Under the pieces are notes generated by a model that worked only from the letters and a program-made list of their open reading frames with translations, did not search any database and was not told the origin of the DNA. Shown here one piece after another: positions 9,522-55,889 of a DNA stretch of 64,000 bases (the stretch's first letter is position 1; each line of letters opens with the position of its first letter). This stretch comes from an uncultured Actinomycetes bacterium. GTDB taxonomy: Bacteria > Actinomycetota > UBA4738 > HRBIN12. The translations under genes and the position numbers were made by a program. The DNA lies in NCBI GenBank assembly GCA_963797635.1, contig CAWCPZ010000011.1:563248-627247 (forward strand), read 5' to 3'.

Positions 9522-9620
9522 GGGGGCGGATGCTAGTCCTCCCCAAGGCCCCGCACATCGCCTTCATGACCCATTCGGCCAGCACCCGGTCGGGCTATGG
9601 CATCGGCGTGAGGAGTGGTA

Positions 9621-11809: not shown

Positions 11810-11844
11810 GTCGCGCCCGAGGCTAGCAGCATGCTCATCGAGGA

Positions 11845-12643: not shown

Positions 12644-12682
12644 ACTACGCTTCGTTCCCGAACCATCTTCGAAGGGTTGGCG

Positions 12683-14901: not shown

Positions 14902-17094
14902 CTAGCCGACGGGGACCGGCGCCTCCTGCTCGGCCTCGGGCTCCCCGGCCTCGGGGTCGTCGGCGAGCTCGAGGTTCATGTTCGGCAGGATGCGGTCGAG
15001 CCAGCCCGGCAGCCACCAGTTCGCATCGCCCAGGAGCACCATCGTGGCCGGCACGAGCACGATCCGCACGATCGTCGCGTCGATCAGCACCGCGACCGCC
15101 AACCCGATACCGAACATCTGTGCCACGGGATCGGGCTGGGTCACGAAGCTCAGGAACACCGCGATCATGATGAGCGCCGCGCTGGTGATCACACGGGCCG
15201 TGGTGGAGATCCCCGTGACCACGCTCTCGACGTTGTTGCCCGTCTTCAGATAGTCCTCGCGGATGCGCGAGAGCAGGAAGACCTCGTAGTCCATCGACAG
15301 GCCGAACAGCACCGCGAACATCATCATGGGCACGAAGCTCACGATCGGGATCAGCTGATCGATGCCGAGCAGGCTGCGACCCCAGCCCCACTGGAAGATC
15401 ACCACGACGACCCCGTACGCGGCGCCGATCGACAGCAGGTTCAGCACGGCCGCCTTCAACGGCACCAGGACCGAGCGGAACACCACCATCAGCAGCAGGA
15501 AGGACAGCAGCACCACGGCGGCGATGAACCAGGGCAACGCGTTCGTGATCCGGTCGGACAGGTCGATGAACGTGGCCGTGGCGCCGCCGACGTGCACCAC
15601 CGCGCCCTCGGGGGTGGCCCCGGGGATCGTGTCGTCGCGGAGCACCCGCACCAGATCGGTGGTGGCTTGATCCTGTGGCGAGGTCGTGGGGAACACCTGG
15701 ATGATCGCGGCGTCCCCCGCCTCATTGGGCTGAGGCGGCGTGACGGCCGCCACGCCCTCGGTCGCGGCGATCGCCGAGTTCAGGCCCTCGAGGCCCTGCA
15801 GCGCCGCCGGATCGTCGATCTCCACCGCGAGCAGGAGCGGACCGTTGAAGCCGGGGCCGAAGCCCTCGGACAGCAGGTCGTATGCCTGGCGGCGGGTCTC
15901 CGACGTCGGCGCCGTGCCGTCATCGGGGAACCCGAGCTTCATCGAGAACAGCGGGACCGCCAGCACGAGCAACACCAGGACGGCACCGACGAAGTAGCGC
16001 CACGGGCGATGTTCGACCTCGCGCCCCCACCGCAACCACATGTTCTCCTTGGCGGGCTTGGTCTCATCGCGCTTGCGCTTCCGGTGGATGCTCAGGTTGT
16101 CGATCGCGTTGCCCGCGAACCCGAGCAGCGCCGGCAGCAGCGTGATGGCCGCGACGACGGCCACCAGGACGACGATCGCCGCGGCGGTGGCCATCATGCC
16201 GACGAACGCGATCCCCGAGATCCACAGCCCGAGCAGCGCGATCGCCACGGTGATCCCGGCGAACACGACCGCCTGGCCCGCGGTGGCGGTCGCCAGACCG
16301 ATCGCATGCAGGGGCTCCATGCCGGCCTGCAGGTTCTGGCGGTATCGGGTGACGATGAACAAGGCGTAGTCGATCCCGACACCCAACCCGATCATCGAGG
16401 ACAGGATCGTGGAGAACTCAGGGACGCTCGTGAACGCCGACACGATGAGGATGAGGCCGGTTCCCGTCGTGAGGCCGATCACGGCCGTGCCGATGGGCAG
16501 GCCCATGGCCACGACGGAGCCGAACGCGATCAGCAGGATGATCATGGCGGCGAGCAGGCCGACCAACTCGGAGGACCCGGGCTCGGGCTGCGATCCCCAC
16601 GACGCGTACTCGCCACCGATCTCGGCCTCGAGATCAGGCGAGCGTCCACTCTCGACCGCGGACTCGAGCTCGGTGTACGGCTCGGTTCCCAGGTCGACGG
16701 CGGACACGTCGTACGCCACCTGCGCGTAGCCGATCGAGCCGTCGGCCGACACGGCGCCCTGGGTCTCGAGCGGGTTCGTCACGGAGACGACATGGGGCTG
16801 ACCCGCGATGGCATCCAGGGTGGAACCCACCGCGTCGGCCTGTTCCTCGAGCGCCCCGCTGGTCGAGTGGAAGACGATCAACGCCGAGGTGCCCGAGGCG
16901 GATGGGTACCGCTCAGCCAACAGGTCGTAGGCCCGCTGGGACTCGGAGTCCGGCAGGTTGAAGTCGTCGGCGAGCTTGCCACCGAGCGCGCTCCCTGCGG
17001 CGAAGATCACGAACACGGCGGCGACCCAGATCACGACGGTTCTCCAGCGCCGACGCGCAGCGAGTTGGCCAAGCCGATAGAGGAACGAACTCAT
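14902..17094 (-). CDS. MMPL family (RND superfamily) transporter
   Basis: ORF 14902..17094 (730 aa). Two blocks of about 6 TM segments each, separated by soluble loops. The N-terminal FLYRLGQLAARRRW and the repeated IGxGxDYALF / GLSMDYEVFL motifs are typical of MmpL. Confidence 0.9.
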   Translation of the reverse strand: MSSFLYRLGQLAARRRWRTVVIWVAAVFVIFAAGSALGGKLADDFNLPDSESQRAYDLLAERYPSASGTSALIVFHSTSGALEEQADAVGSTLDAIAGQPHVVSVTNPLETQGAVSADGSIGYAQVAYDVSAVDLGTEPYTELESAVESGRSPDLEAEIGGEYASWGSQPEPGSSELVGLLAAMIILLIAFGSVVAMGLPIGTAVIGLTTGTGLILIVSAFTSVPEFSTILSSMIGLGVGIDYALFIVTRYRQNLQAGMEPLHAIGLATATAGQAVVFAGITVAIALLGLWISGIAFVGMMATAAAIVVLVAVVAAITLLPALLGFAGNAIDNLSIHRKRKRDETKPAKENMWLRWGREVEHRPWRYFVGAVLVLLVLAVPLFSMKLGFPDDGTAPTSETRRQAYDLLSEGFGPGFNGPLLLAVEIDDPAALQGLEGLNSAIAATEGVAAVTPPQPNEAGDAAIIQVFPTTSPQDQATTDLVRVLRDDTIPGATPEGAVVHVGGATATFIDLSDRITNALPWFIAAVVLLSFLLLMVVFRSVLVPLKAAVLNLLSIGAAYGVVVVIFQWGWGRSLLGIDQLIPIVSFVPMMMFAVLFGLSMDYEVFLLSRIREDYLKTGNNVESVVTGISTTARVITSAALIMIAVFLSFVTQPDPVAQMFGIGLAVAVLIDATIVRIVLVPATMVLLGDANWWLPGWLDRILPNMNLELADDPEAGEPEAEQEAPVPVG

Positions 17095-17157
17095 GGGAGC
17101 CTTTCGTCAGGAGCGGACGGCGTAGGACTCCACGATAGGCAAGGCGGTGCTCGACTG

Positions 17158-18325
17158 TCACCGACCGGGGCGCTCGGCGTCGCCCCACAGACGATCGGCC
17201 ACGCGGCCCACGAGCTCCAGCTTGCGCCACTGGGCGTCCTGGTCGGTCTCGTTGCCCACCATCACGCTCGCGAACCCGCACTGCGGGCTGATCGCGAGCC
17301 GCTCCATGCCTCCTGCGAAGCCCGCGGCCTCGTCCATCCGACGCATCAGGTCGTCTTCGTCCTCCAGGACCGGGGTCTTGGAGTTGACGATGCCCATCAC
17401 CATGACCGAACCCTCGCGCAGGTGCCGGACCGACTCGAACCCGCCGTCACGACCCTCGTCGTCCCATTCCACGAGGAACGAGTCGTACGGGAGTCCGCCG
17501 AACACCCGCTCGGCGACCGGTTCGAGCGAGCCCTCGCACATCCACGACGAGCGGAAGTTCCCACGGCAGATGTGCAGTCCCACGGTGACGTCGTCGGGGA
17601 TCCCCTCGAGCACGGCCGTGTCGGCCGCGACGGCCGCCTCGACCAGCCCGTCGATATCGTGGCCCGCCGCTTCGAACCGTGCGTATCCACGCCGGATCGA
17701 CCAAGTAGGGATACAAGGGGAAGTCGAACTGGACGTATCGTGCCCCGGCCGCGATCGCCTCGGCCACCAGGCCCCGTTCGATCTCGATCGCGTGGTCCAC
17801 GAACTCGGCCAGCGACGCATACCCACGGCCGTCCGTGCCGGCGACCGTCGTGAAGGGGTGGGTGAAGATCGAGGCCGCCGGGAACGTCACCTTGAACGGA
17901 TACCCGCCGGTCTCTGCCCTCATGAAGGAGGCTTCCCGCGCGGCCGGTGCATCCACGGGCGCGAGCCGATCCACGATCTCGTGGATGTGGAGCTCGACGT
18001 CCTCCCCACGATCGTTGCGGAACGAGACCGTCTTGCCGGTCCGCACGCCGCTCACCGCGTCGTAGAAGGAGTTCATGAACATCCAGCGACGGAACTCCCC
18101 GTCGGTCACCACGTCGAGGCCGCAGTCGATCTGGCGCCGGACCACCTCGCGGATCGCTTCGTCCTCGGCCTCACGGAGCGCGGTGGGATCCTTCGCGCGT
18201 TCCTCGTCCAGCACGGCGGAGTGACCCTCGTCGTAGAAGGACGCCACGGCAGCTTGTAGCGGCGCGGGACGCAGGAGCGAGCCGACCGTCTCGGCGCGGG
18301 CGGGCCGGCGGGGCGTGTGGGTCAC
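17158..18325 (-). pseudogene. Cobalamin-independent methionine synthase (MetE C-terminal domain)-like protein, frame break near 17690-17700
   Basis: GTG about 18325 overlaps the upstream stop (GTGA). The N-terminal part (THTPRRPARAETVGSLLRP...DVVTDGEFRR...YVQFDFPLYPYLVDP) is in ORF 17447..18820. The C-terminal part (GLHICRGNFRS...ISPQCGFAS) is in ORF 17158..17826. Confidence 0.75.
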
Positions 18326-18820
18326 TCCTCGCCCTCGGGCGGTTCCACCTCTTCGGCCTCCAGAGCCTCGATCACCGGCTTTCGCGTGGGCCGGGCCGAT
18401 CCGGTTGCCCTCCCACTGGTAGGTCCGGCCGCTGCCGGGGTCCTCGACCGTGAGGGTGCGGACGTTCACCCGGCCGTGCACGGTGATGTGCGCCTTCGAC
18501 CGATCGATCGTCGCGAACGTCTCCTCGGGCTGCCACCCCACGCCGTGCTGGCCACACTTGATCGCGTACAGGGTGGTGGGCGTCACGGCGAGCATCGTCC
18601 AACGCGGCACGCCGTCCATGTGCGACATCGCGCGGCCGCTCTCCATGCCGGCCGCCACGCCGGCGATCTCGCCCACGATGTTGTCGGTCGCGAACCCCGC
18701 GCCGGTCGCGCCCATCATCCCGCCGGTGGTCCCACGCGGTTCGAACATCCCCGCCGCCAGGATCTGCTCGTCGCCGCCCAGGTAGGCCTTAGCTTCCTCG
18801 ATCAGTTTCTCGTCACTCAT
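18322..18820 (-). pseudogene. Hypothetical protein (about 165 aa, Gly-rich N-terminal half, acidic tail), frame break near 18380-18386
   Basis: ORF 17447..18820 starts MSDEKLIEEAKAYLGGDEQILAAG... and runs without a stop into the next gene. Skipping one nt after ...NRIGPAHAK gives PVIEALEAEEVEPPEGEE-stop, which overlaps the next gene's GTG. No family recognised. Confidence 0.55.
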
Positions 18821-18841
18821 CGTGCGGGCTCCTTCCGGTAC

Positions 18842-19250
18842 TCAACGGCTCGTGGGCAGGACGGCCACGAGGTCGACTTCGATCAAGGCTTCAGGCATGA
18901 CCAGCGCCACGACCTGCACCGCCGTGCTCGCCGGCGGTTCCTCCGGCAGGTAGCGAGCGCGCACCTCCCGCACCTCGGGGAATCCTTCGAGCGTGGTCAC
19001 GAAGGTCTGGATCTTGACGACGTCCTCGAATGACGCACCGTGCGCCTCGAGGATGTGGACCAGGTTCTCGAAGACCTGCTCGGTCTGTGCGGCCATGTCG
19101 CCCGACCCCGACCAGCACGCCGTCGCGGTCGAGGGCGAGCTGGCCCGAGACGAACAACCACCGGACCTCACCGGCCTCGACCACCGCGGCGTGGGAGTAG
19201 GTCCCGACCGGTGGCGCCACCGATGAGGGGTTCGAACGGATCGATCGCAT
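18842..19250 (-). pseudogene. RidA/YjgF family (reactive intermediate deaminase) protein, frame break near 19100
   Basis: The N-terminal part (MRSIRSNPSSVAPPVGTYSHAAVVEAGEVRWLFVSGQLALDRDG) is in ORF 18891..19250. The C-terminal part (DMAAQTEQVFENLVHILEAHGASFEDVVKIQTFV...IEVDLVAV) is in ORF 18842..19171. Confidence 0.75.
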
Positions 19251-19292
19251 CAGTCACCTCCTGTGGTGCACCGTACTTCGTGGTGCGCTGGC

Positions 19293-20475
19293 TCACGAGC
19301 GAGCATCCCACCGGACCCAGAGGGAGTCCGGCGCTCGGAACTCCCAGCCGCTCAGCGTCACCGGCCGGTCGGGGTCGAGCCGGAGGCCGGGCAGCCCGTC
19401 GAGCAGCAGATCCAGCGACACCCTCGAGAGGTACCTGCCGAACCACGCCCCCAAACAGAAGTGGGTGCCGATCGCGAAGGCCAGGTGCGCGCCCTCCTTG
19501 CGATGCACGTCGAACCGATCGGGATCGGTCCAGCGACGAGGATCACGGTTCGCCGACGACAGGACGGCGCCCAGCAACGCCCCTTCGTCCAGCGGCACTC
19601 CCGGCGAGCTCGGTGGCGCCCGTGGTCTGGCGGGTCGACGTCCCCACCGGCCCGGCCCAGCGCAGGGTCTCCTCCACCGCGGCCTTGACCAGGGAACGGT
19701 CGCCCCGGACCTCCTCGAGCTGGTCCGGGTGCGTCCCCAGCGCCCACAGGGTCAACGCGATGACGTCCCGCGGTTCCTGCAAGCCGCCGGAGAGCATCAG
19801 CTTCGTGTTGGCGACGATCTGGTCCCGCGTCATGCGGCGACCGTCCTGCTCGTGGTGCAGCATCCACGACAGGACGCTGCCGTCGGGTTCGGCGTCCAGG
19901 CGATCCAGCACCTCGCCGATCGCCGCTCCGAGCGCGGCGCTGGCGTCATCGGCCGGCGCCTGCTTCGCCGGGTCACCCTCGAAGTTCGCCAGACCCGGCA
20001 TCAGCCCTTCGTTCCAGCGGAGGATGTCCTGCCAGGGCACGTCCTGCAGGCCCAGCATGAAACAGAGGCTCTGCACGCTCATCGGGTCGGCGTAGGCACG
20101 GAACAGGTCGGCCTCACCGTCGGCGGCGAACCCCTCGATCAGCTCCTGCGCCAACCGGGGGATCATGCCCCGCGTGCGTTCCTCGACGTCCCGAGGACGG
20201 AACGGCGTCTCGGTGATGGCCCGGAGCCACGCCTGCTCCGGACCCTCCATGCCCAGCATGTTCTCGCCCATCGTGCGATTCAGGGTCGACGGCGTGGTGG
20301 CGGCGGTGAACACCTCGGGTGCGAGGTCGACGTGGCGCACGTCGTCGTGCCGGGTGACGAGCCACAGCCCGACCGCCGGCACCCAGCTCACGGGTTCGTC
20401 CTCGCGGAGCGCGGCGTAGATCGGATAGGGGTCACGCTCGAGCGCCTCGAGCGTGATGGACTCCCCGATCGACAT
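19293..20475 (-). pseudogene. Cytochrome P450, frame break near 19598-19603
   Basis: The N-terminal part is in ORF 19543..20505. ATG 20475 is preferred because GGGGAG lies 6 nt upstream (sequence MSIGESITLEALERDPYPIY...). The I-helix-like segment is MLSGGLQEP and the EETLR motif is present. The C-terminal part is in ORF 19293..19598 and carries the heme loop FAIGTHFCLGAWF. Confidence 0.8.
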
Positions 20476-20528
20476 CGCCTGCTCCCCGGCCCGTCCGCTC
20501 CGCATCGCCCCGCGTTCGGCGACGGGGT

Positions 20529-20558
20529 ATTTTGTGCCCGAACGATTCGCCCGCGCAA
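20529..20558 (-). promoter_or_regulatory. Candidate promoter of the P450 gene at 19293..20475 (TTGCGC-N18-CAAAAT, with TCGTTCGG in the spacer)
   Basis: Read on the minus strand. Same architecture and a 16/19-nt identical core as the site upstream of the second P450 gene (22802..22831). Function not tested. Confidence 0.35.
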
Positions 20559-20637
20559 ACCGCTGCCACTCGGGCTACGGTTCGGCGCGGAGCGCGGCTC
20601 GTCCGATGCACGACCGGAACCGCCGAGGGGGAAACGG

Positions 20638-21945
20638 ATGGACCTGAACGGCAAGCGCCTGCGGCTGTTGTATCCCGACATCCACGGGCTGGAGCGAGGC
20701 AAGTACCTGTTCGGCAAGGTGGCGGAATCGGGCCACGCGGCGTTCTGTGTCGGCGTCTATCCGCTCACGCACGATCGCGAGATCCTCATGGTGCCGAACA
20801 CGCAGTTCGACGTGGGGCTGCCCGACATCGATGTGGAGCTCGACCGCGAGTCGCTCCGTCCGAGCTGGGAACCCGAGACCGTGATCGGCATCGGCGACGT
20901 CCACTATCAAGGCGGTCCGGCGGTGCTGGACCCACGCCACGCCCTGCATCGAGCCGTCGAAGCCTGGCGATCGATGGGCCTGGAACCGCAGATCAGCTTC
21001 GAGCTCGAGTTCTACCTGATGGAGCCCGACGGCGGCGGCGGATGGCGGCCGGTCTCGCTGCCGGGCCATCGCGTCTACGGGACGGGCATGTCCGTCGACC
21101 CCACCGGCTGCGTCGAGGACATGGTCACGACCGCGCTGGCGTGCGGCTTCCCCGTGGAGAGCTGGAGCAGCGAGTACGACGAGTCCGCCTACGAGGTGAA
21201 CATCCGCTACAACGACGCGCTCCCCGCGGCCGATGACGCGTTCGTGTTCCGGTTGCTGATCCGCGAGATCGCCGAGCGCAACGGCAAGCTCGCGACGTTC
21301 CTGGGCCGGCCGCTCGCCGACCGCGGCGGCAGCGGGATGCACGTGAACTTCAGCTTCCGTCGTGAGGACGGCTCGAACGCGTTCCACGACCCCAACGATC
21401 CGGAAGGGCTCTCGACCCTGGCGCGGCAGTGCATCGCGGGGGTGCTCGAGCATCACGCCGGGATGGCGGCGCTCATGGCCCCGCACGTGAATGCCTACAA
21501 GCGGCTGCAGCCCGACATGTTGAACGGCTACTGGGGGAACTGGGGGCACGACGACCGCTCCGTGTCGGTCCGCGTGCCGCCGGCGCGTGGCGAAGGAACG
21601 CGCCTGGAGCAACGGACGGCCGACGCAGCCGCCAACCCGTACCTGGTGGGGGCGGCCGTGTTGCACGCGGCCCGCTTCGGCGTCGAGGACGAGATGGAGC
21701 TGAGGCCGCCACAGCCGGTCGGTGACGATCCCGACACCGACGTGCGGATCCCCGCGAACCTGGACGCGGCGCTGAAGGTCTTGAACGGCGACCAACGGCT
21801 GGTCGAGGCCATGGGCACGGAGCTGATCGAGGCGTTCACCATCCTCAAGCGGGGCGAATGGGAGCGCTACATGGGGGCGAACCAGGAGACCGACACGACC
21901 GAGGTCACCGATTGGGAGCTTCGGTACTACCTGCCGTACCACTAG
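20638..21945 (+). CDS. Glutamine synthetase family protein (GlnA-like; gamma-glutamyl-amine ligase type)
   Basis: In-frame ATG 20638 of ORF 19465..21945. 435 aa with SFELEFYLM, the SGMHVNFS motif, NAYKRL and RVP...RLEQRTADAAANPYL, typical of the GS catalytic domain. It lacks the length and regulatory loop of canonical GSI. Confidence 0.85.
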   Translation: MDLNGKRLRLLYPDIHGLERGKYLFGKVAESGHAAFCVGVYPLTHDREILMVPNTQFDVGLPDIDVELDRESLRPSWEPETVIGIGDVHYQGGPAVLDPRHALHRAVEAWRSMGLEPQISFELEFYLMEPDGGGGWRPVSLPGHRVYGTGMSVDPTGCVEDMVTTALACGFPVESWSSEYDESAYEVNIRYNDALPAADDAFVFRLLIREIAERNGKLATFLGRPLADRGGSGMHVNFSFRREDGSNAFHDPNDPEGLSTLARQCIAGVLEHHAGMAALMAPHVNAYKRLQPDMLNGYWGNWGHDDRSVSVRVPPARGEGTRLEQRTADAAANPYLVGAAVLHAARFGVEDEMELRPPQPVGDDPDTDVRIPANLDAALKVLNGDQRLVEAMGTELIEAFTILKRGEWERYMGANQETDTTEVTDWELRYYLPYH

Positions 21946-21966
21946 ATGGATGGCGGAGGGCGATCG

Positions 21967-22769
21967 ATGCGGCTCGAAGGCAAGGTGGCGATCGTCAGCG
22001 GTGGCGGTTCGGGGATCGGCGCCGCAACCGCTCGCAGGTTCGCCGACGAAGGGGCGAAGGTGGTCGTCACCGGGAGACGGCCGGAACCGTTGCTCGCGGT
22101 CGCGGACGAAACGGGGGGCCTGGCGTTCCCGGGCGATACCACCGACCCTGGCCATGCCGCACGCCGCGGTGATGGCCGCGTCCGAGGCCTTCGGAGGACT
22201 CGACATCGTGGTGGCCAACGCCGGAGTTGGGTTCGGGGGGACGGCGGCATCGGTCACCGATGAGGAATGGCTGCGCACCCTGGACGTGAACGTCACCGGA
22301 GCCATGCGCCTGGCTCGAGCCGCGATCCCGGCGATGGCCGATCGCGGCGGCGGCTCGATCGTGCTCGTGTCCTCGGTCTCCGGCGTCGTGTCGTCACCCT
22401 CGAGCGCCGCATACGTCACGTCGAAGGCCGCATTGATCGGGTTGGCCACGCGCGATCGCCGTCGATCACGCGCCGCAGGGGATCCGGTGCAACGCGCTGT
22501 GCCCGGGGTGGGTCCGAACGGCCATGGGCGATGCCGCCATGGAGGAACTCGCCACCGCCCGGGGCGTGGATCTGGACGCGGCCTACGCCATCGTGACCGG
22601 CCCGATCCCGATGCGGCGCGCCGCCAGCCCCCAGGAGATCGCGGCCTGTGCCGCGTTCCTGGCGAGCGACGATGCTTCCTACGTGACGGGAACCAGCCTG
22701 TTCGCCGACGGCGGCCTTCTCGCGGTCGACCCGGGTGGATTGGCGTTCGAAGGGATGGAAGCGCCGTGA
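21967..22769 (+). pseudogene. SDR family oxidoreductase, two frame breaks (near 22155-22160 and 22445-22450)
   Basis: Three consecutive frames: [37 protein letters not shown] (ORF 21946..22263), then [21 protein letters not shown]...SSAAYVTSKAALIGLA (ORF 21950..22825), then RAIAVDHAPQGIRCNALCPGWVRT...YVTGTSLFADGG (frame of ORF 22524..22769). Contains TGxxxGxG, NAG and YxxxK. An alternative ATG lies at 21946. Confidence 0.8.
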
Positions 22770-22801
22770 CCGTCTCGGCCGACTTGGGGCCTCCAGACGG
22801 G

Positions 22802-22831
22802 TTGCCCGTGAAGGTCGTTCGGTAGCAAAAT
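22802..22831 (+). promoter_or_regulatory. Candidate promoter of the P450 gene at 22881..24147 (TTGCCC-N18-CAAAAT, with TCGTTCGG in the spacer)
   Basis: An AT-rich CAAAATAC is preceded at a fixed distance by TCGTTCGG, duplicating the element at 20527..20545 (opposite strand). It lies about 45 nt upstream of the start codon. Confidence 0.35.
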
Positions 22832-22880
22832 ACTTTCGCTGCGCGTGCGCGTCGAGAAGCTGACGGGAGTCGACCCATGA

Positions 22881-24147
22881 GTGAAGTGTCAGGGACTGTC
22901 TCGAAGGGCGCTCGGCGACATCGACCTGGTGAACCCCGACAACTACGTCGATGGCGTGCCGTTGGAGTGGTTCGACCGGCTTCGCGACCGACCATCCCGT
23001 GATCTGGCACCCCGAGCCGTCGCCGAACCACGGCTTCTGGGCGGTCACGCGCTACGACGACCTCACCGCGATCCACATGGACTGGGAGACCTTCTCGTCC
23101 GAGACCGGCGCGGTCTCGCTCGAGGAGCTCGACGCCGAACAGCTCGAGATCCGCAAGTCGATGCTCGAGACCGACCCCCCGCGCCACACCGAGCTGCGCA
23201 AGATCTGCTCGAAGCGGTTCAGCGCCCGCGGCGTGGGCAAGTACGAGGACTGGATCCGCGAGGTGGCCAGCGACGTGCTCGACCAGGCCCTGCCGAAGGG
23301 CGAGTTCGACTTCGTCAGCGAGATCAGCCGCGATCTGCCGATCCGGTTCCTGTGCTCGATCTTCACGGTGCCGCAGGAGGATGCGCCGAAGCTGATCGGG
23401 TGGGGCGACAACATGATCGCCAACCAGGACCCCGACCTGTCGGCCGCCGTCGTGGACAAGGTCGACACCGAGGCCTACCGCCTGTTGCCGTTCCGCTCCC
23501 CCACCGCGCTCGACGTGTTCGCCTACGCCGACGCGCAGCGGGACCTGCGCGTCGCCGAACCCGCCGACGACGTGCTGCAGGCCCTCACGATCGCCCAGTC
23601 CGAAGGCGTGCTCAACGAGCAGGAGTTCCACAACTACTTCGGGGTGCTGATGATCGCCGGCAACGAGACCACGCGGCACACGATCAGCCACGGCATGCTG
23701 GCGCTGATGCAGCATCCCGAGCAGCTCCAACTGCTCCGCGACCAGCCGGAGCTGATCCCGAACGCCACCGAGGAGATCCTGCGGTGGGCGACGCCCGTGC
23801 TGCACTTCCGGCGCACGGCCACGCGCGACGTCGAGCTGCGCGGCCAGCAGATCAAGGCCGGGGACAAGGTGGTGACCTGGTACATCAGCGCGAACCGCGA
23901 CCCCGAGATGTTCGCCGATCCCTACACGTTCGACGTGACGCGCACGCCGAACGACCACGTGACGTTCGGGCCGGGCGGACCGCACTTCTGCCTGGGGGCG
24001 CACCTCGCGCGCCTCGAGACGAAGATCCTGTTCCAGGAGTTGATCCCGCGCCTCGACACGATCGAGCTGACCGGGCCGGTCGAGCGCATCCGCTCGAACT
24101 TCGTGAACGGCATCAAGCGGATGCCGGTGCGCGTCACCACGCGCTAG
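22881..24147 (+). pseudogene. Cytochrome P450, frame break near 22997-23001; start unresolved (GTG 22881, or ATG 22877 in a third frame)
   Basis: The N-terminal part (ALGDIDLVNPDNYVDGVPLEWFDRLRD) is in ORF 22881..24281. The rest (DHPVIWHPEP...AGNETTRH...EEILRW...FGPGGPHFCLGAHLA) is in ORF 22951..24147. GGGAG lies 7 nt before ATG 22877. Confidence 0.8.
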
Positions 24148-24160
24148 CCCGACGCCCCCC

Positions 24161-25102
24161 ATGCTGCCCCCGCGCCTGGTGCTGGTGCTCAGCGAGAACC
24201 ACACGCTGGTGCCACCACGTGACTTGCGAGGCCTGGTCGAGGTCGCCGTCGAAGCCGAACGAGCCGGGTTCGACGGGGTGATGGTGAGCGAGCACATCGT
24301 CCTGGGTCGGGGCGCCGATGCCGACGGAGTGCCCGCGAATCCCAGGGACTACGCGCTTCCGGGCAATCAGGACCCGGCCACACCGTGGCCGTCATCGCTC
24401 CTGCTGCTGGCAGCGGTCGCATCGGCGACGACGAGGCTGCGGCTGATCGCGAGCGCCGTGATCCCTCCCCTGCGCCACCCGCTGCTGATCGCGAAGGACC
24501 TCGCCACACTCGACCTGTTGTAGTGAAGGCCGGCTCGTGGTGCAGCCCACGGTGAGCTGGCACCGCGCCGAATACGACGCCTTGGGCGTCCCCTTCGAGA
24601 CCGGGGCCGGCGTCTCGATGAGCACCTCGATGGCGTGGGCGGCGCTGTGGCGAGGTTCGCCGGCGACCTTCGAAGGTGAGTACTACGCGTTCGATGACGT
24701 CTGGCTCGAGCCGAAGCCGTTCCGTGCCGACCGGGCCGAGGCTGTGGTTCGGCGGTCAACGGCTGCACGACCGGCTCCTGCAACGTCTCGTCACGTTCGG
24801 TCACGGATTCAACCCGCTGGGACGACCGAGCGATGAGGAACTCGAGCGGCTCGCGGCGGCGATGGCCGATGCCGGCCGCGATGCGGCCGACCTCGAGATG
24901 GTCGGCGGCACGCGCGGTTCGTTCCCCGACGCGGACAGCCCGGCGCCGCTGGGCGCTGCCCTCGATCAGATCCCGGATCAGGTGGCGCGAGGGTTCGGCA
25001 CGATCTGCATCAAGCCCGGACAGTTCACCGACGACCGGGCCGAGATCCCGGGATCTGCTGCAGCGCATCGTCGACGGTACGGCCGCCAGGACCTCTGCCT
25101 AG
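24161..25102 (+). pseudogene. Luciferase-like (LLM class) flavin/F420-dependent oxidoreductase, three frame breaks (near 24520, 24730, 25048)
   Basis: Four consecutive frames: ORF 24161..24523 (GFDGVMVSEHIVLG...LRHPLLIAKDLATLDLL), ORF 24537..24836 (SEGRLVVQPTVSWHRAEYDALGVPF...), ORF 24676..25740 (GPRLWFGGQRLHDRLLQRLVTFGHGFNPLG...ICIKPGQFTDD) and ORF 24833..25102 (RDLLQRIVDGTAARTSA-stop). Confidence 0.75.
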
Positions 25103-25117
25103 TCTGGTTCAGACTAG
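25099..25117. terminator. Perfect palindrome CTAGTCTG-GTT-CAGACTAG between convergent genes; the stop codon of the + strand gene lies inside the stem
   Basis: Seen directly. TAG 25100-25102 ends the LLM gene. The MarR gene's stop also lies inside the palindrome (its 3' end is placed at 25109). A near-identical copy lies at 54396..54412. Confidence 0.45.
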
Positions 25118-25649
25118 TGGCGGCCGTCGGCGGCGTCGGCCGTCGGGCACGGCTCGCAGCAGCGAACGGAGCATGGCGGCCAGGCTGTCCTGCTGGTCGC
25201 GGACAGGTGCGCGCGACCGCCGACTCCTCGGCGTTGAACTTGGGGAACAGTCCCTCGATCGTCGTCCGGCCCGACGGCGTCAGCTCGACGATCACCATGC
25301 GACCGTCCTTCGCGTCCTTGCGCCGGGTGACGAAGCCACGCGATTCGAGGGTCGTCATCACGCCGGTCGCCGTCGGGCGGCTGATCCCCACCGCCGCCGC
25401 GAAGTCCCGCGCCTCCATCTCGCCCCACACCCACAGCACCCACAGGCCGACGAACGAGGTCCAGCTGAGGCGGTCGGCGGCCAGCACCTTCGCTTCCATG
25501 TGCCGGCGGATCGCGGTCGAGCTGCGGAACAGGTTCGAGACCGCCCACATCGCGCGGAAGTCCAGCGGCAGGTGGCCGAGCTCCTCGACGATCTTGCGTT
25601 CGGCGGGCAGGAGGCCGTCGGCGCCGATGCGGTTCGGGCGATCGCTCAT
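25109..25649 (-). pseudogene. MarR family transcriptional regulator (HpaR-like by context), frame break near 25195-25215
   Basis: ORF 24978..25649 gives MSDRPNRIG...DRLSWTSFVGLWVLWVWGEMEARDFAAAVGISRPTATGVMTTLESRGFVTRRKDAKDGRMVIVELTPSG. The expected C-terminal helix (RDQQDSLAAMLRSLLRAV) appears only after skipping one nt. ATG 25649 overlaps the upstream stop (ATGA). Confidence 0.75.
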
Positions 25650-27079
25650 GCCGCGCTCCCCGTGCGAGCGAGGCGCTCGCCGAGCTCACGCGCGACGTCG
25701 AGCAGGGCCAGCACGTCGTCCTCGGTGGTGCGGAAGTTGACGAAGCACGGCCGCAGCCACACCTCGCCGTCGATCAGGGCCGACGACAGGTAGACGCGGC
25801 CATCGGCCTGGATCGCGTCGGCGAGCGCCTGGTTGTGCGCGTCGAGGTCGGCGACGCCCGGCGGGCACGTGGCGGATCGGCACGATCGACAGTTGCGGGG
25901 GCGCCTCCATGACCTCGAAGTCCTCGGTCGTCTGCGCGTGGCGGTACAACAGGTCCGCCTCGGCCAGGTTGCGTTCGATCGCGTCGCGGAACTGCGCCGC
26001 GCCGTGCGCCCGGAACGCCAGCCACATCTTCAGGGCGCGGAACGGCCGCGAGTACTCCAGCGTGATGTCGACGGCGTGCAGCTCGTGCTGCTGGTGCGGC
26101 AGGTAGCCCTGTTCGTGCGCGAACGCGGCGGCGAGGGCATCGTCGTCCCTCACCAGGACGACGCCGCAGGCCTTCGGCAGGTACAGCCACTTGTGAGCGT
26201 CGACCGAGCACGAGTCGGCCCGCGAGAAGCCCGCGAACCCCGCCGCGCGCGACTCGGTGGCCGCCGCCGGCAGACCGTAGGCGCCGTCGACGTGGAGCCA
26301 CACGCCACGCGCCTCACACACGTCGGCGATCTCCTCGAGCGGGTCGATCGCGCCCGTGAGCGTGGTGCCGGCCGTCGCGATCACCGCCATCGGGCGTGAT
26401 GCCCGCCGCGATGTCGGCATCGATCGCCTCGGCGAGGGCGTCGGGCCGCATCCGGCGGAGCCCGTCGAGGTCGACCGCGCGCAGGTTGTCCGAGCCCATC
26501 CCCAGCAGCTCGACCGCCCGCATCACGGAGTAGTGGACCTCCTTCGAGCAGTAGACGGCGACGCGCCGCCCGCCGAGCCCGGTGTGGCGGGATCCCGGCA
26601 TCGCGCGTTCGCGGGCGGCCGCCAGCGCGCTCACGTTGCTGATCGTGCCGCCGCTCGTGAACGCGCCACCCGTGGCCGGGAACCCGATGAACTCCGCGAC
26701 CCAGCGAACGGCCTGATCCTCGACCTGCGTCGCCGCGCGGGCATCGACCGCCAGGTTGATGTCGTAGGTGTGGGCCAGGAAGTCGGCGAGGGCACCGATC
26801 TCGAGGCCGCTCGAGCCGATGAACGCGAAGTAGCGAGGCCTCGCCTGCGCGATCGACTCGTCGAGGATGCGCGCGGCGTCATCGAGCGCCTCGTGCGACC
26901 GGGCTCGGACCCGAAGGCAGGCCCGCTTCGAGGAGCCGCCGCACGCGATCGTCCAGCGGCGGCTCCTCGGGCCGGAACCGGTCGAAGCTGCGCCAGGCCT
27001 CGGTGACCAGCCGGACCGCGTGCTCGAGCGCCTCTTCGCGAGGCGCATCGAGCCGCAGCGGCCGGTCGGGTTGCGTCAT
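25646..27079 (-). pseudogene. Pyridoxal-dependent (group II) amino-acid decarboxylase, three frame breaks (near 26896, 26398, 25862)
   Basis: Four consecutive frames: ORF 26879..27079 (MTQPDRPLRLDAPREEALEHAV...), ORF 26314..27048 (SHEALDDAARILDESI...TSGGTISNVSALAAARE...), ORF 25686..26420 (MAVIATAGTTLTGAIDPLEEIADVC...SVDAHKWLYLPKACG, the PLP-lysine motif), then a tail PGVADLDAHNQALADAIQADGRVYLSSALIDGEVWLRPCFVNFRTT. Confidence 0.8.
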
Positions 27080-28591
27080 AGCGCAGATGGTACGCAGAAC
27101 TCAGGAAGCCCCGACATCCTCCGAATGGAGGTCACCGAGCACCTCGCTCGCGGGCGCCCGCCGCCCATCACCATCGTGACGATCGCTCCGATCACCGAGC
27201 CAGACCGAGCGCGAACCAGGGTGCCAGGACCGTCGGGCTGGTCTGCTTGTAGAACGACGCCGAAGATCGCCGCCGCCGGTGAGCGCGATACCGACGATCG
27301 AGGCGATGTACACCCCAGCCATGCTGCCGTGGTCTGACGAGCCCGCGGAACGCCCCGACCGACATCAGCAGGTAGACGACGACGAGCGCGAACCCGCCGA
27401 AGGTCGAGGCCCAGACGAAGATCGAGAAGTAGTGCGGGAGCTCCGGGAGGGCGAACAGGTCTTCCCAGAACTCGTTCAGCGGCGATGAACCCGGCCATGA
27501 CGACGATCATCAGCACGATCGCACCGATCGGCGTGCCGTACTTCTTCGACACGGAGGCCAGGCCGCCGGGAAGCCGACGGTCGCGAGCCATCGCGAAGAC
27601 GCCGCGGGTCGAGGCGGTCGCCGCACCCACGCCGACCGCGAGGATGTCGAGGAACACGACGATCACGAGGAGGTCGAGGATGAACGTCGATCCGTACCCC
27701 CCGGCGGCCTCGGGCGAGCCGAGCGCGAACAGCGGCGGCGGCAGCCGCGGCGAAGATGTTGTCCACGTTGAACCCGAAGCCCGCCACCTGCGCGTACGAC
27801 GCGATCAGGTAGAAGAGCGACACGACCACGACGGACGTCGAGCACGGCCTTGGGGATCGCTCGCTTCGGCTCCTGCGTTTCCTCCGCGAGGTTCGCCGCG
27901 GTCTCGAACCCGACGAAGATCAACACGCCGTAGAGCACCCCGAAGAAGATGCCCGGACCAGCCCGACGTCGAGGAGTTCGGGTTGAACGCCGTTGCCACA
28001 TCGTTGTCGCCGCCGACGTCGATGATCACCTTGATGAAGAAGGCCAGCACGACCGCCGCCGAGACCAGCGCCAGCGTCAATTGCACCCGGGTCGAGATCT
28101 GCACGCCGAAGTAGAGCACCACGAACACCAGCAGCGCGAAGAACGCGCTCCACGCCCAGATCGGCAGCGGAGACTCCGCGCTGAACACGCCGGGGACCGC
28201 AGGGTCGGACGTGAAGATCGAGTCGTGGATGTACCCGCCGATCAGCACGCCGAGGCCGGCCGTGAGCACCATGGTGCCGCTGTAGTACAGCCACCCGGCA
28301 GCGGCGCCCGACGTTGTTGCCCAGTCCGGCCGACACGTAGTCGTACAGCGAACCGGCGGCGTGGATCTTCTTCGCGTACTGCGCCACGATCCACCCGAGC
28401 GCGAACACGCCGATCGCCGCGATCAACACCGACAGCGGCGCGGCAACTCCCGCGCCCTTGGCGGCCACGTTCGCTCCCACGATCAGCGGGATGAGGAACG
28501 CGGCGGAGAACACCGGTCCCATGAAGCCGACGGACTGGGCGATCACGTCGACGAGCGAGAGCTTCGCCTCGCCGAGCCGTTCGTAGCCCAT
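27076..28591 (-). pseudogene. APC family amino-acid permease with at least 8 frame breaks
   Basis: ATG 28591 (MGYERLGEAKLSLVDVIAQSVGFMGPVFSAAF...). The protein is spread over ORFs 27920..28726, 27805..28272, 27663..28001, 27476..27829, 27076..27666, 27101..27322 and unlisted short frames. The frame steps by one nt each time, near 28290, 27975, 27840, 27735, 27480, 27335, 27275, 27255 and possibly 27215. The C-terminal end is not resolved. Confidence 0.75.
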
Positions 28592-28670
28592 GTCCTGTGA
28601 CTGACCTGGTTGGTCTGCCACTGGAGCCTCCCTTCCTGTTCGGTTCCCCCCGTCCGACCGGTCGCCGCAG

Positions 28671-29570
28671 CTAGGCCGCGGTCCCCTCGCCGGTCCAACC
28701 GTCCGCGGGCCGCTCGAACCAGACATGCACCTGGCCCGTTCCCACGGAAGCTTCGTACTCGCTGTAGGGCTCCCCCGGCGCCTGGCAACGCGCGCCGCCG
28801 ATCGCCGAGGCCATCATCAGGTAGTGGCCGAAGTGCCCCTCCGGCGCCGCCTTCCGGTACTCCGGCATCCAGTCGATGATCCCCGCGTGGTCGCCGTCCT
28901 TCATCATCGCGAGCACGCGCTGGTCGGCCTCGTAGCTCTCGCGATGCAGGATGTTGTCGGGCGCCTTCGAGCTCTCGTGCTGCCGGAGTTCCTGGAACGA
29001 GAAGAACCGGTGGGTCATGCCACCGCTCGCGAGCAGCACCACGCGCCGGTCGCTCTCGCGGATCGCGTTGCCGATCAGCTCGCCGAACAGCAGGAAGTCC
29101 TCGGTGGTGCAGCACTGGTTGATCGCCACGCTCATCCACCGCGTGTCGGCGTCGCCCAGGAACGTCCACACGTTCACGGTGCCGTAGAAGATCGGCAGGA
29201 ACGGATCGTCGCAGGGCAGGATCCAGCAGTCGTCGCGCCCTTCGGCCTGCGCCGCGATCGCGTTCGCGAGCTCGGGGTCGCCGGGCATGTCGTAGGGCAC
29301 CTGCTTCATGCCGCGCGGCAGTTCATGGCTCGTGAACTTGCCGGTCCGGCGTTCGGCCGAGGTCACGATGTGTTCGAAGGTCGACTCCCAGTGCGTGTCG
29401 AACACGATCACGGTGTCCGGGTTCAGCCGGTCGAGCGCCTCGGACTTCAGTCGATGCAGGCCGGGCACCAACGAGATCTCGTTGCCGTCGTTGAGTTCGC
29501 GCCGCGTGTCCTCCGGCAGCATGATCGTGGGAACGTGCGCGACCAGTGCCGCGCCGACGATCTCACCCAT
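28671..29570 (-). CDS. hpaD: Class III (LigB-type) extradiol dioxygenase, homoprotocatechuate 2,3-dioxygenase (HpcB/HpaD)-like
   Basis: ORF 28671..29570 (299 aa). MGEIVGAALVAHVPTIML, DTVIVFDTHW, LASGGMTHRF and SVGTGQVHVWF match, from memory, the corresponding blocks of E. coli HpcB (MGKLALAAKITHVPSMYL, DTIIVFDTHW, LASGSLSHRF, SSGTGQVNAVF). Confidence 0.8.
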   Translation of the reverse strand: MGEIVGAALVAHVPTIMLPEDTRRELNDGNEISLVPGLHRLKSEALDRLNPDTVIVFDTHWESTFEHIVTSAERRTGKFTSHELPRGMKQVPYDMPGDPELANAIAAQAEGRDDCWILPCDDPFLPIFYGTVNVWTFLGDADTRWMSVAINQCCTTEDFLLFGELIGNAIRESDRRVVLLASGGMTHRFFSFQELRQHESSKAPDNILHRESYEADQRVLAMMKDGDHAGIIDWMPEYRKAAPEGHFGHYLMMASAIGGARCQAPGEPYSEYEASVGTGQVHVWFERPADGWTGEGTAA

Positions 29571-29588: not shown

Positions 29589-31128
29589 TCAGGTGGTCCA
29601 CGGTGCCGTGCAGACGTTCTTCACATCGCTGTAGAAATCGAAGCTCCACGTGCCGCCCTCTCGGCCGATCCCGGAGTTGCGCGAGCCGCCGAACGGGGCC
29701 GCCAGGTCGCGCACGAAGAAGCAGTTGACCCACACGGTGCCGGCCACGAGCGCCGCGCTCACGCGTTCGGCGCGGCCCGGATCGCCCGTGTACAGGATCG
29801 CGGCCAGGCCGTACCGCGTGTCGTTCGCCAGCGCCACGGCTTCGTCCTCGTCGGCGAACGTCTGCAGGGTGAGGACCGGGCCGAAGACCTCCTGCGTCAG
29901 GATCTCGGAGCCGGCCGGCGCATCGGTGAACAGCGTGGGTCGGTAGTACAGGCCCCCGAGCTCGTCGTTGGGTCCACCGCCGAAGACCGCACGGGCACCG
30001 TCGGCCTTGGCGCGTTGGACGAATCCGTCGACGCGCTCGAAGTGTTCGCGGGTGATCTGCGGGCCGATCTCGGTGGCCGCTTCTCGTGGGTCGCCTTGCA
30101 CGATCTCGGCGGCGGCCCGGGTGAACCGGTCCAGGAACTCGTCGTGGATCGACGCCTCCACGAGCAGCCGCGTGCCGGCCAGGCAGACCTGACCGGCGTT
30201 GTCGAACTGGTTGACCGCCTGCTTCACGACCGCGTCGAGATCGGCGTCGGCGAAGGCGACGAACGGTGACTTGCCCCCGAGCTCCAGGCTCGCCGGGGTG
30301 AGGTTCGCGCCGGCGGCCTGCGCCACGAGCTTGCCGGTCGGCACCGATCCGGTGAACGCGATGCGATCCAGGCCGGGATGGGCGGTGAGGGCGGCGCCCG
30401 CCTCCTCGCCGATCCCCTGCAGCACGTTGAACGCGCCGTCGGGCAGGCCGGCATCGTGCGCGATGTCGGCGAGCATCGAGGCGGTGAGCGGCGCCCACTC
30501 CGGCGGCTTGAGGATCACGGCGTTGCCGGCCGCCAGCGCCGGAGCCACGCGCCAGGTGGCGAGCATCAACGGAGCGTTCCACGGCGTGATCACGGCCGTG
30601 ACGCCGCTGGGGTCCCACTCGAAATGCTCGGCGAACCCGTCGTGGTCCTTGTCGTCACCCAGCGTCAGCAGGTGGTCGGCGAAGAACCGGAAGTTCCGCG
30701 CGACACGCGGCATGACGGAGTTCCGCATCGACCGGAGCAGCGACCCGTTGTCCCGCGTCTCGACCGCCGCGAGTTCGGGGACGCGCGCCTCGACGCCATC
30801 GGCGATCCGGTGCAGGACCTCCGCTCGCTCCTTCGGCGGGCATCGAGCCCCAGACGGCGAACCCCTCACGAGCGGCGGCGACGGCCTGGTCGGCTTCGGG
30901 GGCTCCCCCGCGGGCGACCTCGGCGATGGGCATCTCGTCGATCGGCGAGACGTCGACGAAGGTCTCGGCCGACGCGACGCGCGTGCCGCCGATCCAGTGG
31001 TCGGTGGAGACCTCGATGCCCTCGACGACGGCGTGCCCCGTGGCGACCCTCTCCTCGCGTCGTGGGACGCGGTGCGTCCCAAGGTCGTTCGGACACGAAC
31101 GGTATGGCCGGTGCCAAGCCGCTGTCAA
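29589..31128 (-). pseudogene. NAD-dependent aldehyde dehydrogenase (HpaE-like by context), frame break near 30830-30838; start unresolved
   Basis: The body is in ORF 29589..31082 (ITPWNAPLMLATWRVAPALAAGNAVILKPPEW, ELGGKSP, VCLAGTR, EEVFGPV). The N-terminal part (VSTDHWIGGTRVASAETFVDVSPIDEMPIAEVARGG...FAVWGSMPA) is in ORF 30655..31128. The only conventional start upstream is TTG 31128. A strong GAGGAGAGGG near 31050 has no ATG/GTG/TTG after it. Confidence 0.8.
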
Positions 31129-45164: not shown

Positions 45165-45373
45165 TGATTCAGCCGGCTTGGCGGCCGCCCAGACCCAGAT
45201 ACCTTCCTATGCAAGGTCCCTGCGCCCCTTGCGGTCGGCACATCACCCGGCCTCCGGGTCAACGACCACGGGTTCCCCCGGCGGAACGTCAACACCTTCC
45301 GGGTTCCGTCCTGCGTGGGAACCCGTACGCCGTTGACGATCGCCGGGGCGAGGGAGCGAGACCCCTCCGAGCC

Positions 45374-55882: not shown

Positions 55883-55889
55883 GCTCCCC

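Follow-up and report, generated by a model that had tools for sequence, protein, structure and literature searches.

Why should a glutamine synthetase (GS)-like gene lie between two cytochrome P450 genes, close to a gene for an amine-forming decarboxylase? This question is raised by positions 19293-25102 of a 64,000-nucleotide stretch of DNA from an uncultured Actinomycetes bacterium (GenBank assembly GCA_963797635.1, contig CAWCPZ010000011.1, positions 563,248 to 627,247; G000:C11:563248-627247 in our numbering), hereafter the window, within an assembly of 2,995,007 bases in 13 contigs with 69% G+C and a marker completeness of 92.68%. An earlier note on this DNA had read the five genes of the span as a candidate module for amine oxidation depending on gamma-glutamylation. 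Its gene order, strands and end points were correct, namely a P450 gene (P450a) on the minus strand, followed on the plus strand by the GS-like gene (GS1), a short-chain dehydrogenase/reductase (SDR) gene, a second P450 gene (P450b) and a luciferase-like oxidoreductase (LLM) gene, with the two outer stop codons as end points. The grouping itself has to be redrawn, as the conserved unit is GS1 and P450b inside a core of about ten genes, whereas P450a, SDR and LLM are accessory. Whether this core encodes a glutamyl-amine ligase and a P450 that feed an Hpa-like ring-cleavage pathway, by which an aromatic amine derived from an imported amino acid would be broken down, is on the sequence evidence an even call in our judgement.

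GS1 and its predicted activity

GS1 (20638-21945, plus strand) is an open frame of 435 amino acids with a GAGGGGG ribosome site and a Pfam Gln-synt_C match at 1.3e-82, and it scores under all curated GS cut-offs (229 vs 650 for PuuA, 210 vs 470 for type III and 199 vs 429 for type I, with GlnII likewise out of reach). In an alignment with E. coli GlnA, 18/18 GS1 orthologues retain the six metal ligands (E129, E131, E212, E220, H269, E357) and the four arginine ligands (R321, R339, R344, R359), while the ammonium site and the flap have lost their residues in all 18 as well (S53I, Y179V, N264G(E), H271N and, in the flap, E327L/M). Furthermore, the adenylylation tyrosine is gone, the Tyr397 column being a gap in 18/18, and the Asp50 column reads Asp within a poorly aligned N-terminal stretch. 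The genome's own two true GS paralogues retain every residue that GS1 has lost; PuuA, IpuC and a TdnQ-like protein, on the other hand, display the same kind of losses. A study of such enzymes describes loss of the flap glutamate and of Asp50' as typical of glutamyl-organic-amide synthetases, and proposes for them the name GoaS (PMC11335346). PuuA, IpuC, AtdA1/TdnQ, NpaA1 and GlnA3/4 are enzymes of this kind.

The maximum-likelihood tree (33 proteins, LG+G4, one search, with GSII, GSIII, GlnA2-4 and PipA outside the sample) parts GS1 by a 100/99 branch from E. coli GlnA and from the genome's own two true GS. As the sister group of the GS1 clade (100/99) it places GS-like proteins from Novosphingobium and Ruegeria whose genes adjoin P450 genes (100/100), and the next branch out leads to a Streptomyces lunaelactis plasmid protein (92/77). 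PuuA, IpuC and the TdnQ-like protein are placed elsewhere, PuuA on a long branch and the TdnQ-like protein far from GS1, and a look-up in the ESM Atlas returned only GS-family clusters of Actinomycetota.

Since the ligands are kept, the ammonium-site and flap residues are lost and the protein branches off from true GS, GS1 looks like a glutamyl-amine ligase. It is probably an ATP-dependent enzyme that joins the gamma-carboxyl group of glutamate to an organic amine and makes no glutamine, in other words a predicted glutamyl-organic-amide synthetase; that it acts on an amine we infer. The view of the earlier note that this GS paralogue may glutamylate amines is supported by both the residue pattern and the tree.

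Conservation of the cluster

GS1 was found in 23/24 other genomes of the genus and in 0/16 from other families of the order (E 1e-60), and, at E 1e-90, in 180/222 genomes of the family, 8/27 of a second family and 0/44 of six others. Roughly four in five genomes sampled from this family of uncultured soil bacteria thus encode the ligase; genomes flagged as unpublished are counted in both surveys. Its close homologues bear the names of uncultured Actinomycetota metagenome-assembled genomes (MAGs). Among ten loci of other genera, all (10/10) had P450b on the GS1 strand at a distance of no more than 3 kb, and a decarboxylase gene was near in 7/10 and MarR in 8/10. A larger sample comprised 80 loci from named MAG records, 80/80 of them uncultured Actinomycetota, in which genes were labelled by their best tblastn hit (E 1e-15); the cultured carriers described below all came from plasmid records. 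Here P450b accompanied GS1 in 63/63 loci having at least 6 kb downstream of the ligase gene, which supports the proposed link of a GS-like gene to a P450.

Full neighbourhoods were counted in the 47 loci with at least 9 kb on both sides of GS1. The core genes were P450b (47), an FAA-hydrolase-family gene (43), an acetoacetate-decarboxylase-family (ADC-like) gene (43), MarR (41), the decarboxylase (38), a permease (33), LigB (32) and an aldehyde dehydrogenase (ALDH; 30), compared with 30 for a MetE-like gene, 29 for P450a, 27 for SDR, 16 for LLM, 15 for a second GS-like ligase (GS2), 12 for an amidotransferase and 2 for SnoaL. The five genes of the span are hence not one module: the pair is GS1 and P450b, the other three come and go, and the core FAA and ADC-like genes stand 7-9 kb upstream, outside the span. 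In compact loci the order is a reversed FAA and a reversed ADC-like gene, then FAA, GS1 and P450b in forward orientation, then MarR, decarboxylase, permease, LigB and ALDH, all reversed. The earlier note had named grouping with true GS and an unconserved neighbourhood as observations that would speak against it, and the tree and the synteny counts gave neither.

Within the window, genes were called by Pfam scans of all 104 stop-to-stop frames of at least 70 amino acids overlapping 17000-29000, together with tblastn using the intact orthologues of relatives. The core there consists of two FAA-family enzymes, the ADC-like enzyme, GS1, P450b, MarR, an aromatic-type decarboxylase, a permease, LigB and an HpaE-like dehydrogenase. 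Upstream are an HpaG-like FAA-hydrolase-family gene (11051-11935, minus; Pfam FAA_hydrolase 8.1e-71), the ADC-like gene (11851-12634, minus; two frames with one break near 12258, 55-67% by tblastn to a Novosphingobium ADC-family protein) and the second FAA gene (12677-13513, plus; 72% identity to a Novosphingobium FAA-family protein), which is found directly 5' of GS1 in compact relatives and is its forward upstream neighbour in 24/71 loci. Downstream follow P450b (~22877-24147, plus; Pfam p450 3.7e-30, 91% to the orthologue of genome G009) and, all on the minus strand, the MarR-family regulator (25120-25709, ends approximate; Pfam MarR 2.4e-14, 86% to the G017 orthologue), a group II pyridoxal-phosphate (PLP) decarboxylase of the aromatic-amino-acid type (25649-27100; Pfam Pyridoxal_deC in two pieces, four frames by tblastn), an APC-family amino-acid/amine permease (27366-28770; Pfam AA_permease in pieces), an intact LigB-type extradiol dioxygenase (28674-29570; Pfam LigB 8e-27) and the HpaE-like ALDH (29592-31124; Pfam Aldedh 2.9e-139). 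The decarboxylase operon was thus rightly placed about 0.5 kb beyond the span, the minus-strand MarR and PLP decarboxylase genes following from about 25.1 kb, and its link to the ligase is conserved across genera.

In the window's genus the accessory set is interleaved with this core, reversed amidotransferase, MetE-like, p179 and P450a genes standing on one side and forward SDR, GS2, sometimes SnoaL, and LLM genes on the other, while in genome L127 the set is separate and lies behind P450b. GS2 is 33% identical to GS1 and falls on the IpuC side of the tree. Orthologues of GS2 and of the amidotransferase are absent from the whole genome studied here (E 1e-20 for the amidotransferase), and SDR and LLM (21949-22796 and 24128-25134) are cleanly missing from the conspecific genomes G014 and G237, a presence/absence polymorphism at gene boundaries; taken together, this indicates that the accessory set is being lost in the species.

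In three other genera, unrelated genes have been inserted between GS1 and P450b: a CMD-family gene, an M20 peptidase gene, toxin-antitoxin pairs and a gene resembling saccharopine dehydrogenase. No ferredoxin was found among them. In locus L051 (genome G129), for instance, the inserts at 8211-11115 comprise a saccharopine-dehydrogenase-like gene together with a PIN/RHH pair and a gene for a MazF-like toxin, and GS1 and P450b still lie within 3 kb of each other. In locus L022 (G021), a heliorhodopsin gene (9381-10256; Pfam 1.4e-96) is found directly 3' of P450b, at the position taken by LLM in other members.

Homologous clusters in other lineages

A tblastn search with GS1 against 72,556 plasmid records matched 658 of them, all below 60% identity. 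The best match (45%) belongs to Novosphingobium sp. EMRT-2, in which a P450-GS-ALDH operon adjoins MarR, accompanied by a second ALDH and a ferredoxin; identities to the window are 55% for LigB (annotated there as catechol 1,2-dioxygenase), 55-67% for ADC, 72% for FAA and 44% for the P450 relative to P450b. Ruegeria sp. TM1040 has an amidotransferase gene next to a P450-GS pair beside paaABCD, with an ALDH near, its P450 being 43% identical to P450b. On a Streptomyces canus plasmid, a GS-P450 pair (52% to P450b) stands opposite ferredoxin, reductase, ADC, ALDH (63%), LigB (53%) and FAA genes, and the cluster further includes TetR, a second P450, a ferredoxin, a TIGR03619 LLM (63% to the LLM of the relatives), an APC permease and an ALDH. 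Finally, pSLUN1 of S. lunaelactis combines MarR next to a GS-permease pair with ADC, two ALDH, a PuuD-family hydrolase, a LigB-like protein, FAA and a PLP enzyme, and no P450 was seen in the 31 kb of this cluster, which would fit a substrate that is already a catechol. As the same set occurs in culturable Novosphingobium, Ruegeria and Streptomyces, the idea is open to bench testing.

The P450s and their shared motif

The best solved match of P450b (query: the orthologue at L019 6826-8187) is the reconstructed CYP125 ancestor CYP125MRCA (PDB 8vxi), with 426 bits over 410 residues, compared with about 274 bits for extant CYP125, about 270 bits for CYP124 and lower scores for CYP153 and P450terp. 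Either the reconstruction is consensus-like, or the sampled CYP125 clade includes GS-linked P450s such as P450b. Membership of a P450 family follows a 40% identity rule, and the likeness of P450b to the CYP125 family is expressed here in bit scores. The CYP125 ancestor hydroxylates the termini of sterol side chains (PMC12100521).

P450a (19293-20475, minus strand) was recognised by a Pfam p450 match on its C-terminal piece and by 74-83% identity in two frames to its G009 orthologue, and carries the heme-cysteine motif FAIGTHFCLG. The two P450 genes share a 19-nt motif, TCGTTCGGnnnCAAAATAC, located at 20527-20545 (minus) before P450a and at 22815-22833 (plus) before P450b, that is, 45-70 nt 5' of both genes and identically oriented relative to each. 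The motif was first spotted by eye and afterwards tested by pattern search: allowing one mismatch at most, it has two matches in the 3-Mb genome, both in front of a P450 gene, and the reversed control pattern has none; allowing up to two mismatches in the 80 related loci, 69 matches were found over 50 loci, 62 of them just before a P450-like hit. Likely, this candidate represents a shared operator or promoter element. A search for repeats in the four intergenic regions produced no convincing result.

The first dozen codons of P450b (22839-22910) differ from those of G014 and G237 by a net 10 bases, so that, of the two candidate starts, the GTG at 22881 alone shares the frame of the remaining gene and the ATG at 22877 does not. 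This difference may reflect a second error or a different start.

A proposed pathway and its closest alternative

Within the general reading of a ligase and a P450 that supply a ring-cleavage pathway, we tentatively favour a route in which the ring is opened while the amine stays protected, a possibility that falls well short of even. The permease would import tyrosine or DOPA, and the decarboxylase, whose nearest solved relatives are the aromatic amino-acid decarboxylases 4obu and DOPA decarboxylase 7xin, would yield tyramine or dopamine. GS1 would then cap the amine as its gamma-glutamyl amide, P450b would supply the missing ring hydroxyl, and the LigB dioxygenase, with 3,4-dihydroxyphenylacetate 2,3-dioxygenase (8iq8) as nearest solved relative, would cleave the protected catecholamine ring. 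With the nitrogen still protected, the fission product would be processed by the ADC-like enzyme, the HpaE-like dehydrogenase and both FAA-family enzymes, until a product of the gamma-glutamyl-aminobutyraldehyde type passes to Puu-type enzymes, the glutamyl group being removed later by a PuuD-type hydrolase encoded elsewhere; the genome has one PuuD-family gene, which lies on contig C4 with another GS-like gene some 6 kb away. P450a, SDR, the F420-type LLM and the MetE-like protein belong to an accessory set, which in relatives comes with its own GS2 ligase and an amidotransferase-type hydrolase. The analysis shows the gene identities, the residue pattern of GS1 and its place in the tree, the synteny in the family and in three further lineages, and that most frame breaks are artefacts; the aromatic monoamine as substrate, the carbon attacked by P450b and every chemical step are what we infer.

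This protected route employs every core gene, and accounts for the S. lunaelactis cluster, where a PuuD-family gene is present and no P450 was seen in 31 kb. Extended to all lineages, the suggestion, again a tentative one, is that soil Actinomycetota have in common with certain Alphaproteobacteria and certain Streptomyces plasmids a route for amines derived from tyrosine or DOPA, in which a gamma-glutamyl tag is attached before the ring is oxidised and opened, the tag keeping the product from cyclising onto its own amine and directing the carbon to gamma-glutamyl-aminobutyrate intermediates, with a P450 of the CYP125 clan recruited for the purpose.

Several observations weigh against this proposal. 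Studied members of the CYP125/124/153 clan hydroxylate aliphatic termini, not aromatic rings, which fits an N-dealkylation (see below) better. The core cluster holds no amide hydrolase, an amidotransferase-type one being near in only the 12/47 loci counted above and none being encoded in the genome (E 1e-20), and neither a ferredoxin nor a reductase is present in the window's cluster. Moreover, the decarboxylase scores far under every curated decarboxylase equivalog cut-off, and LigB (HpaD_Fe 149.8 vs 315.95 bits), ALDH (HpaE 511.6 vs 638.35 bits, using the G021 orthologue) and the FAA enzymes (HpaG-C-term 198.9 for the gene at 11051-11935 and 196.4, vs 276.4) remain below the Hpa cut-offs, and are therefore relatives rather than equivalogs of these enzymes. 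In Ruegeria, the pair adjoins paaABCD, and no LigB gene was seen in the 19 kb covered. Lastly, the related loci are kin, so that the high counts overstate the independent support, and the number of independent lineages is about four.

The closest alternative keeps the same genes and moves the point of attack. Here P450b would hydroxylate the carbon next to the amide nitrogen, and the resulting carbinolamide would split into glutamine and an arylacetaldehyde, which would be converted to (di)hydroxyphenylacetate and enter a homoprotocatechuate-type meta-cleavage by LigB, ALDH, FAA and ADC. No hydrolase is needed in such a scheme, as the amine nitrogen goes straight into glutamine, which agrees with the core cluster having none, and P450b belongs to a clan of aliphatic C-H hydroxylases. 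A precedent comes from the piperidine and pyrrolidine pathways (Pseudomonas pip, mycobacterial pipA/mor), where a GS-like gene stands beside a P450 attacking the carbon adjacent to the amide nitrogen. HpaD and HpaE, to which LigB and ALDH are most closely related among characterised enzymes, act on free acids; the Ruegeria GS-P450 pair has an ALDH near it and adjoins paaABCD, which are phenylacetate genes; and Novosphingobium and both Streptomyces clusters have two ALDH genes. The family core, however, has one ALDH and no 4-hydroxyphenylacetate 3-hydroxylase, so that, starting from tyrosine, genes for one or two steps would be missing. N-dealkylation also cannot explain the S. lunaelactis cluster, where a ligase, a PuuD-family hydrolase and ring-cleavage genes occur with no P450 in 31 kb, and its chemistry would be transferred by analogy. 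We thus regard it as a serious but doubtful alternative to the protected route.

Frame breaks: errors or decay

All genes of the span other than GS1 carry frame breaks, as the earlier note had seen correctly, and the question is whether these breaks have a biological meaning. P450a has one, SDR two (~22160 and ~22450), P450b one and possibly two, LLM at least three (~24522, 24631, 24731 and 25050), and the decarboxylase, outside the span, three. They were compared with the conspecific genomes G014 (~96.5% DNA identity) and G237 (~93-94%), whose GS1 proteins are 99-100% identical to that of the window. At 22986 in P450b (an extra G), at 25863, 26391 and 26896 in the decarboxylase, near 30837 in the ALDH (its only break) and at many single-base sites in the permease, the window has one extra base relative to both genomes, and the six SDR and LLM breaks are likewise +1 relative to five or six more distant relatives. 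Contigs from four metagenome runs of four studies are one base shorter than the window at 26896, 27338, 27738, 25055, 19105 and 17152, among the best 12 of 61 events.

With the private bases ignored, the ratios of nonsynonymous to synonymous substitution (dN/dS) relative to G237 are 0.039 for the decarboxylase, 0.063 for the permease, 0.097 for P450b, 0.099 for ALDH and 0.122 for P450a, in comparison with 0.041 for GS1 and 0.049 for LigB, which are intact; the broken genes are under strong purifying selection. Similar splits occur elsewhere in the assembly, as a PF00133 class I aminoacyl-tRNA-synthetase gene outside the window (G000:C11:179490-181317) is divided over two frames, and so is a fifth GS paralogue (G000:C12:24894-25869). 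The private extra bases, the purifying selection and the split of an essential tRNA synthetase let us read the breaks as assembly errors, and most likely nearly all of them are consensus errors, not decay. Hence, frame breaks in this assembly should not be taken for gene decay.

The idea that the region is unusually fragmented was rejected, as its two 10-kb bins score 0.50 and 0.58, compared with genome-wide values of 0.67 (median) and 0.54 (lower quartile).

The P450a break near 19599 differs from the others. It is common to G014 and absent in G237, consists of an inserted different base without a change in homopolymer length, and is spanned with one gap by a 263-base contig of another study. 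Either a real mutation of the lineage or a systematic error common to two like assemblies could explain it.

These results bear on a further reading, in which the locus is a decaying relic whose breaks are real mutations and where only the GS-like gene still works. It would be in line with four of the five genes in the span being broken, with the shared break at 19599, and with the true loss of accessory genes (GS2 and the amidotransferase from this genome, SDR and LLM from G014 and G237). Yet the other alignable breaks are single extra bases private to the assembly, independent metagenome contigs also lack the extra base at 26896, 27338, 27738, 25055 and 19105, dN/dS remains low in the broken genes (0.04-0.12, with 0.04-0.05 for intact genes), a tRNA-synthetase gene and another GS paralogue elsewhere in the genome are split too, and the region is no outlier in fragmentation. 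We therefore consider a relic unlikely, and of the claim about frame breaks the description stands, while a biological reading of them falls away except, perhaps, at 19599.

Two weaker readings

GS-like ligases serve as carriers in some biosynthetic pathways, and the glutamyl group might similarly act as carrier or protecting group toward a small natural product. The P450s, the SnoaL-like protein, the F420 reductase and the MetE-like protein of the accessory set would suit such a role, as would the location of two homologous clusters on Streptomyces plasmids. In contrast, the families that make up the conserved core are catabolic ones (LigB, HpaE-like ALDH, HpaG-like FAA, permease, MarR), no nonribosomal peptide synthetase, polyketide synthase or tailoring core is conserved alongside, and the cluster is near-universal in a family of small-genome soil bacteria, which makes a biosynthetic function very unlikely.

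That the adjacency is functionally meaningless, GS1 serving nitrogen assimilation or an unrelated amine and P450b being a CYP125-like terminal hydroxylase of sterols or terpenoids, we judge highly improbable: although the top solved match of P450b is an ancestor that oxidises sterol side chains, its own conserved motif means that co-transcription with GS1 is not required, and some genera have unrelated genes inserted between them, GS1 and P450b keep each other's company in 63/63 loci despite these inserts. Moreover, P450s with 43-52% identity to P450b adjoin the GS-like genes of Novosphingobium, Ruegeria and S. canus as well, GS1 is devoid of ammonium-site residues, and Pfam scans of the window saw no steroid-catabolism genes.

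Comparison with known systems

Glutamylation prior to oxidation has precedents in the pathways for putrescine, isopropylamine, cyclic amines and anilines. The earlier note invoked isopropylamine degradation (Ipu), where the amine is glutamylated first and a P450 then oxidises the amide. The annotated ipuC cluster of Paenarthrobacter aurescens TC1 (pTC1) and a look-alike in Microbacterium sp. YJN-G (pYJNG) comprise an SDR, an amidotransferase, a P450, a ferredoxin, a reductase and the ligase, and as in the window, GS-like ligase, SDR and P450 adjoin. However, GS1 is 31% identical to IpuC and belongs to a different clade, so it is not an IpuC orthologue, and the P450 of the Ipu cluster, 29% identical to P450b and 25% to P450a, is no orthologue of either. 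Furthermore, the hydrolase, ferredoxin and reductase held by Ipu clusters have no counterpart in the window's cluster (17-31 kb), and GS1 is accompanied by ring-cleavage genes and a decarboxylase where Ipu has an alanine dehydrogenase. Of the Ipu-like logic that the earlier note had suggested, the sequence of glutamylation and P450 oxidation thus fits, whereas orthology does not.

In the aniline and naphthylamine systems (AtdA1/TdnQ, NpaA1), an aromatic amine is likewise glutamylated prior to oxygenation by a ligase that has lost ammonium-site and flap residues. The aniline-type oxygenase is a Rieske dioxygenase acting on an arylamine (a Hydrogenophaga example), while here a P450 would act on what is likely an arylethylamine from the decarboxylase. 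In the Puu system of E. coli (PuuA-D), gamma-glutamylation shields the amine during oxidation as it would in the favoured route, which would end in Puu-type intermediates; GS1, on the contrary, scores far under the PuuA model, and the window's cluster contains no flavin oxidase.

The lower part of the cluster resembles the Hpa meta-cleavage pathway in its LigB-type dioxygenase, HpaE-like dehydrogenase and HpaG-like FAA enzymes, as well as in the likely tyrosine-derived amine. It differs by an ADC-like enzyme where a hydratase and an aldolase are expected, and by a ligase and a P450 as upper part, which in an Hpa-type pathway is formed by an amine oxidase and HpaBC. Pseudomonas putida U reportedly has a 3,4-dihydroxyphenylacetate catabolon for tyramine and dopamine. 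As for the CYP125 and CYP124 terminal hydroxylases of sterols and methyl-branched lipids, P450b matches them by sequence, but its gene context is non-steroid and it has a GS-like partner in four lineages.

A literature search, with the subscription papers on Ipu and pip outside its reach, yielded no paper in which a GS-like ligase and a P450 are combined with the cleavage of an aromatic ring; equally, no description of glutamylation coupled to extradiol ring cleavage and an amino-acid decarboxylase was found in the literature searched. For gamma-glutamyl-tyramine, -dopamine and -phenylethylamine, only papers on metabolomics and on methanofuran/methylofuran biosynthesis turned up; the ligase of the latter pathway belongs to another fold. 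A Gulosibacter study treats GS as ordinary nitrogen assimilation (PMC9477822). What we describe is a known scheme, first glutamylate and then oxidise, in a new clade and a new gene combination. If the proposal is true, it would add a route by which biogenic aromatic amines are turned over in soils and the sea, and give the CYP125 clan a new role.

Accessory and neighbouring genes

Between GS1 and P450b, the SDR gene (21946-22766, plus) was recovered as Pfam adh_short pieces in three frames. Downstream of P450b, the LLM gene (24161-25102, plus) appears as Pfam Bac_luciferase pieces in at least three frames; the intact G009 orthologue passes the F420-dependent type TIGR03619 (177.1 vs 166.9 bits), the window copy being in pieces. 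On the other side of P450a and on the minus strand lie a RidA/L-PSP-family gene (18845-19249; Pfam Ribonuc_L-PSP 1.1e-20, NCBIfam Rid family 64.4 bits and under the cut-off), an accessory gene for a conserved hypothetical protein of ~148-179 amino acids (18377-18820; 84% identity to the G009 orthologue), which matched no Pfam family, and the accessory MetE-like gene of the cobalamin-independent methionine-synthase family (17182-18316; 71-80% by tblastn to the G017 orthologue in two frames, with a break near 17680), whose product reaches 247 bits for NCBIfam NF005085, under the cut-off of 313.

About 30 kb from the cluster, a broken ferredoxin reductase gene and a Rieske ferredoxin gene (54661-56264, minus; Pfam Reductase_C/Pyr_redox_2 and Rieske) form the only such pair in the window, the reductase being 39% identical to that of the S. 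canus cluster. They are possible redox partners of the P450s. Finally, a stop-free frame of 1447 codons (45246-49586, minus) contains aminotransferase class V, phosphoglycerate-dehydrogenase and MFS domains in series; it probably represents several genes in one open frame of high-GC DNA, or else genes with lost stops.

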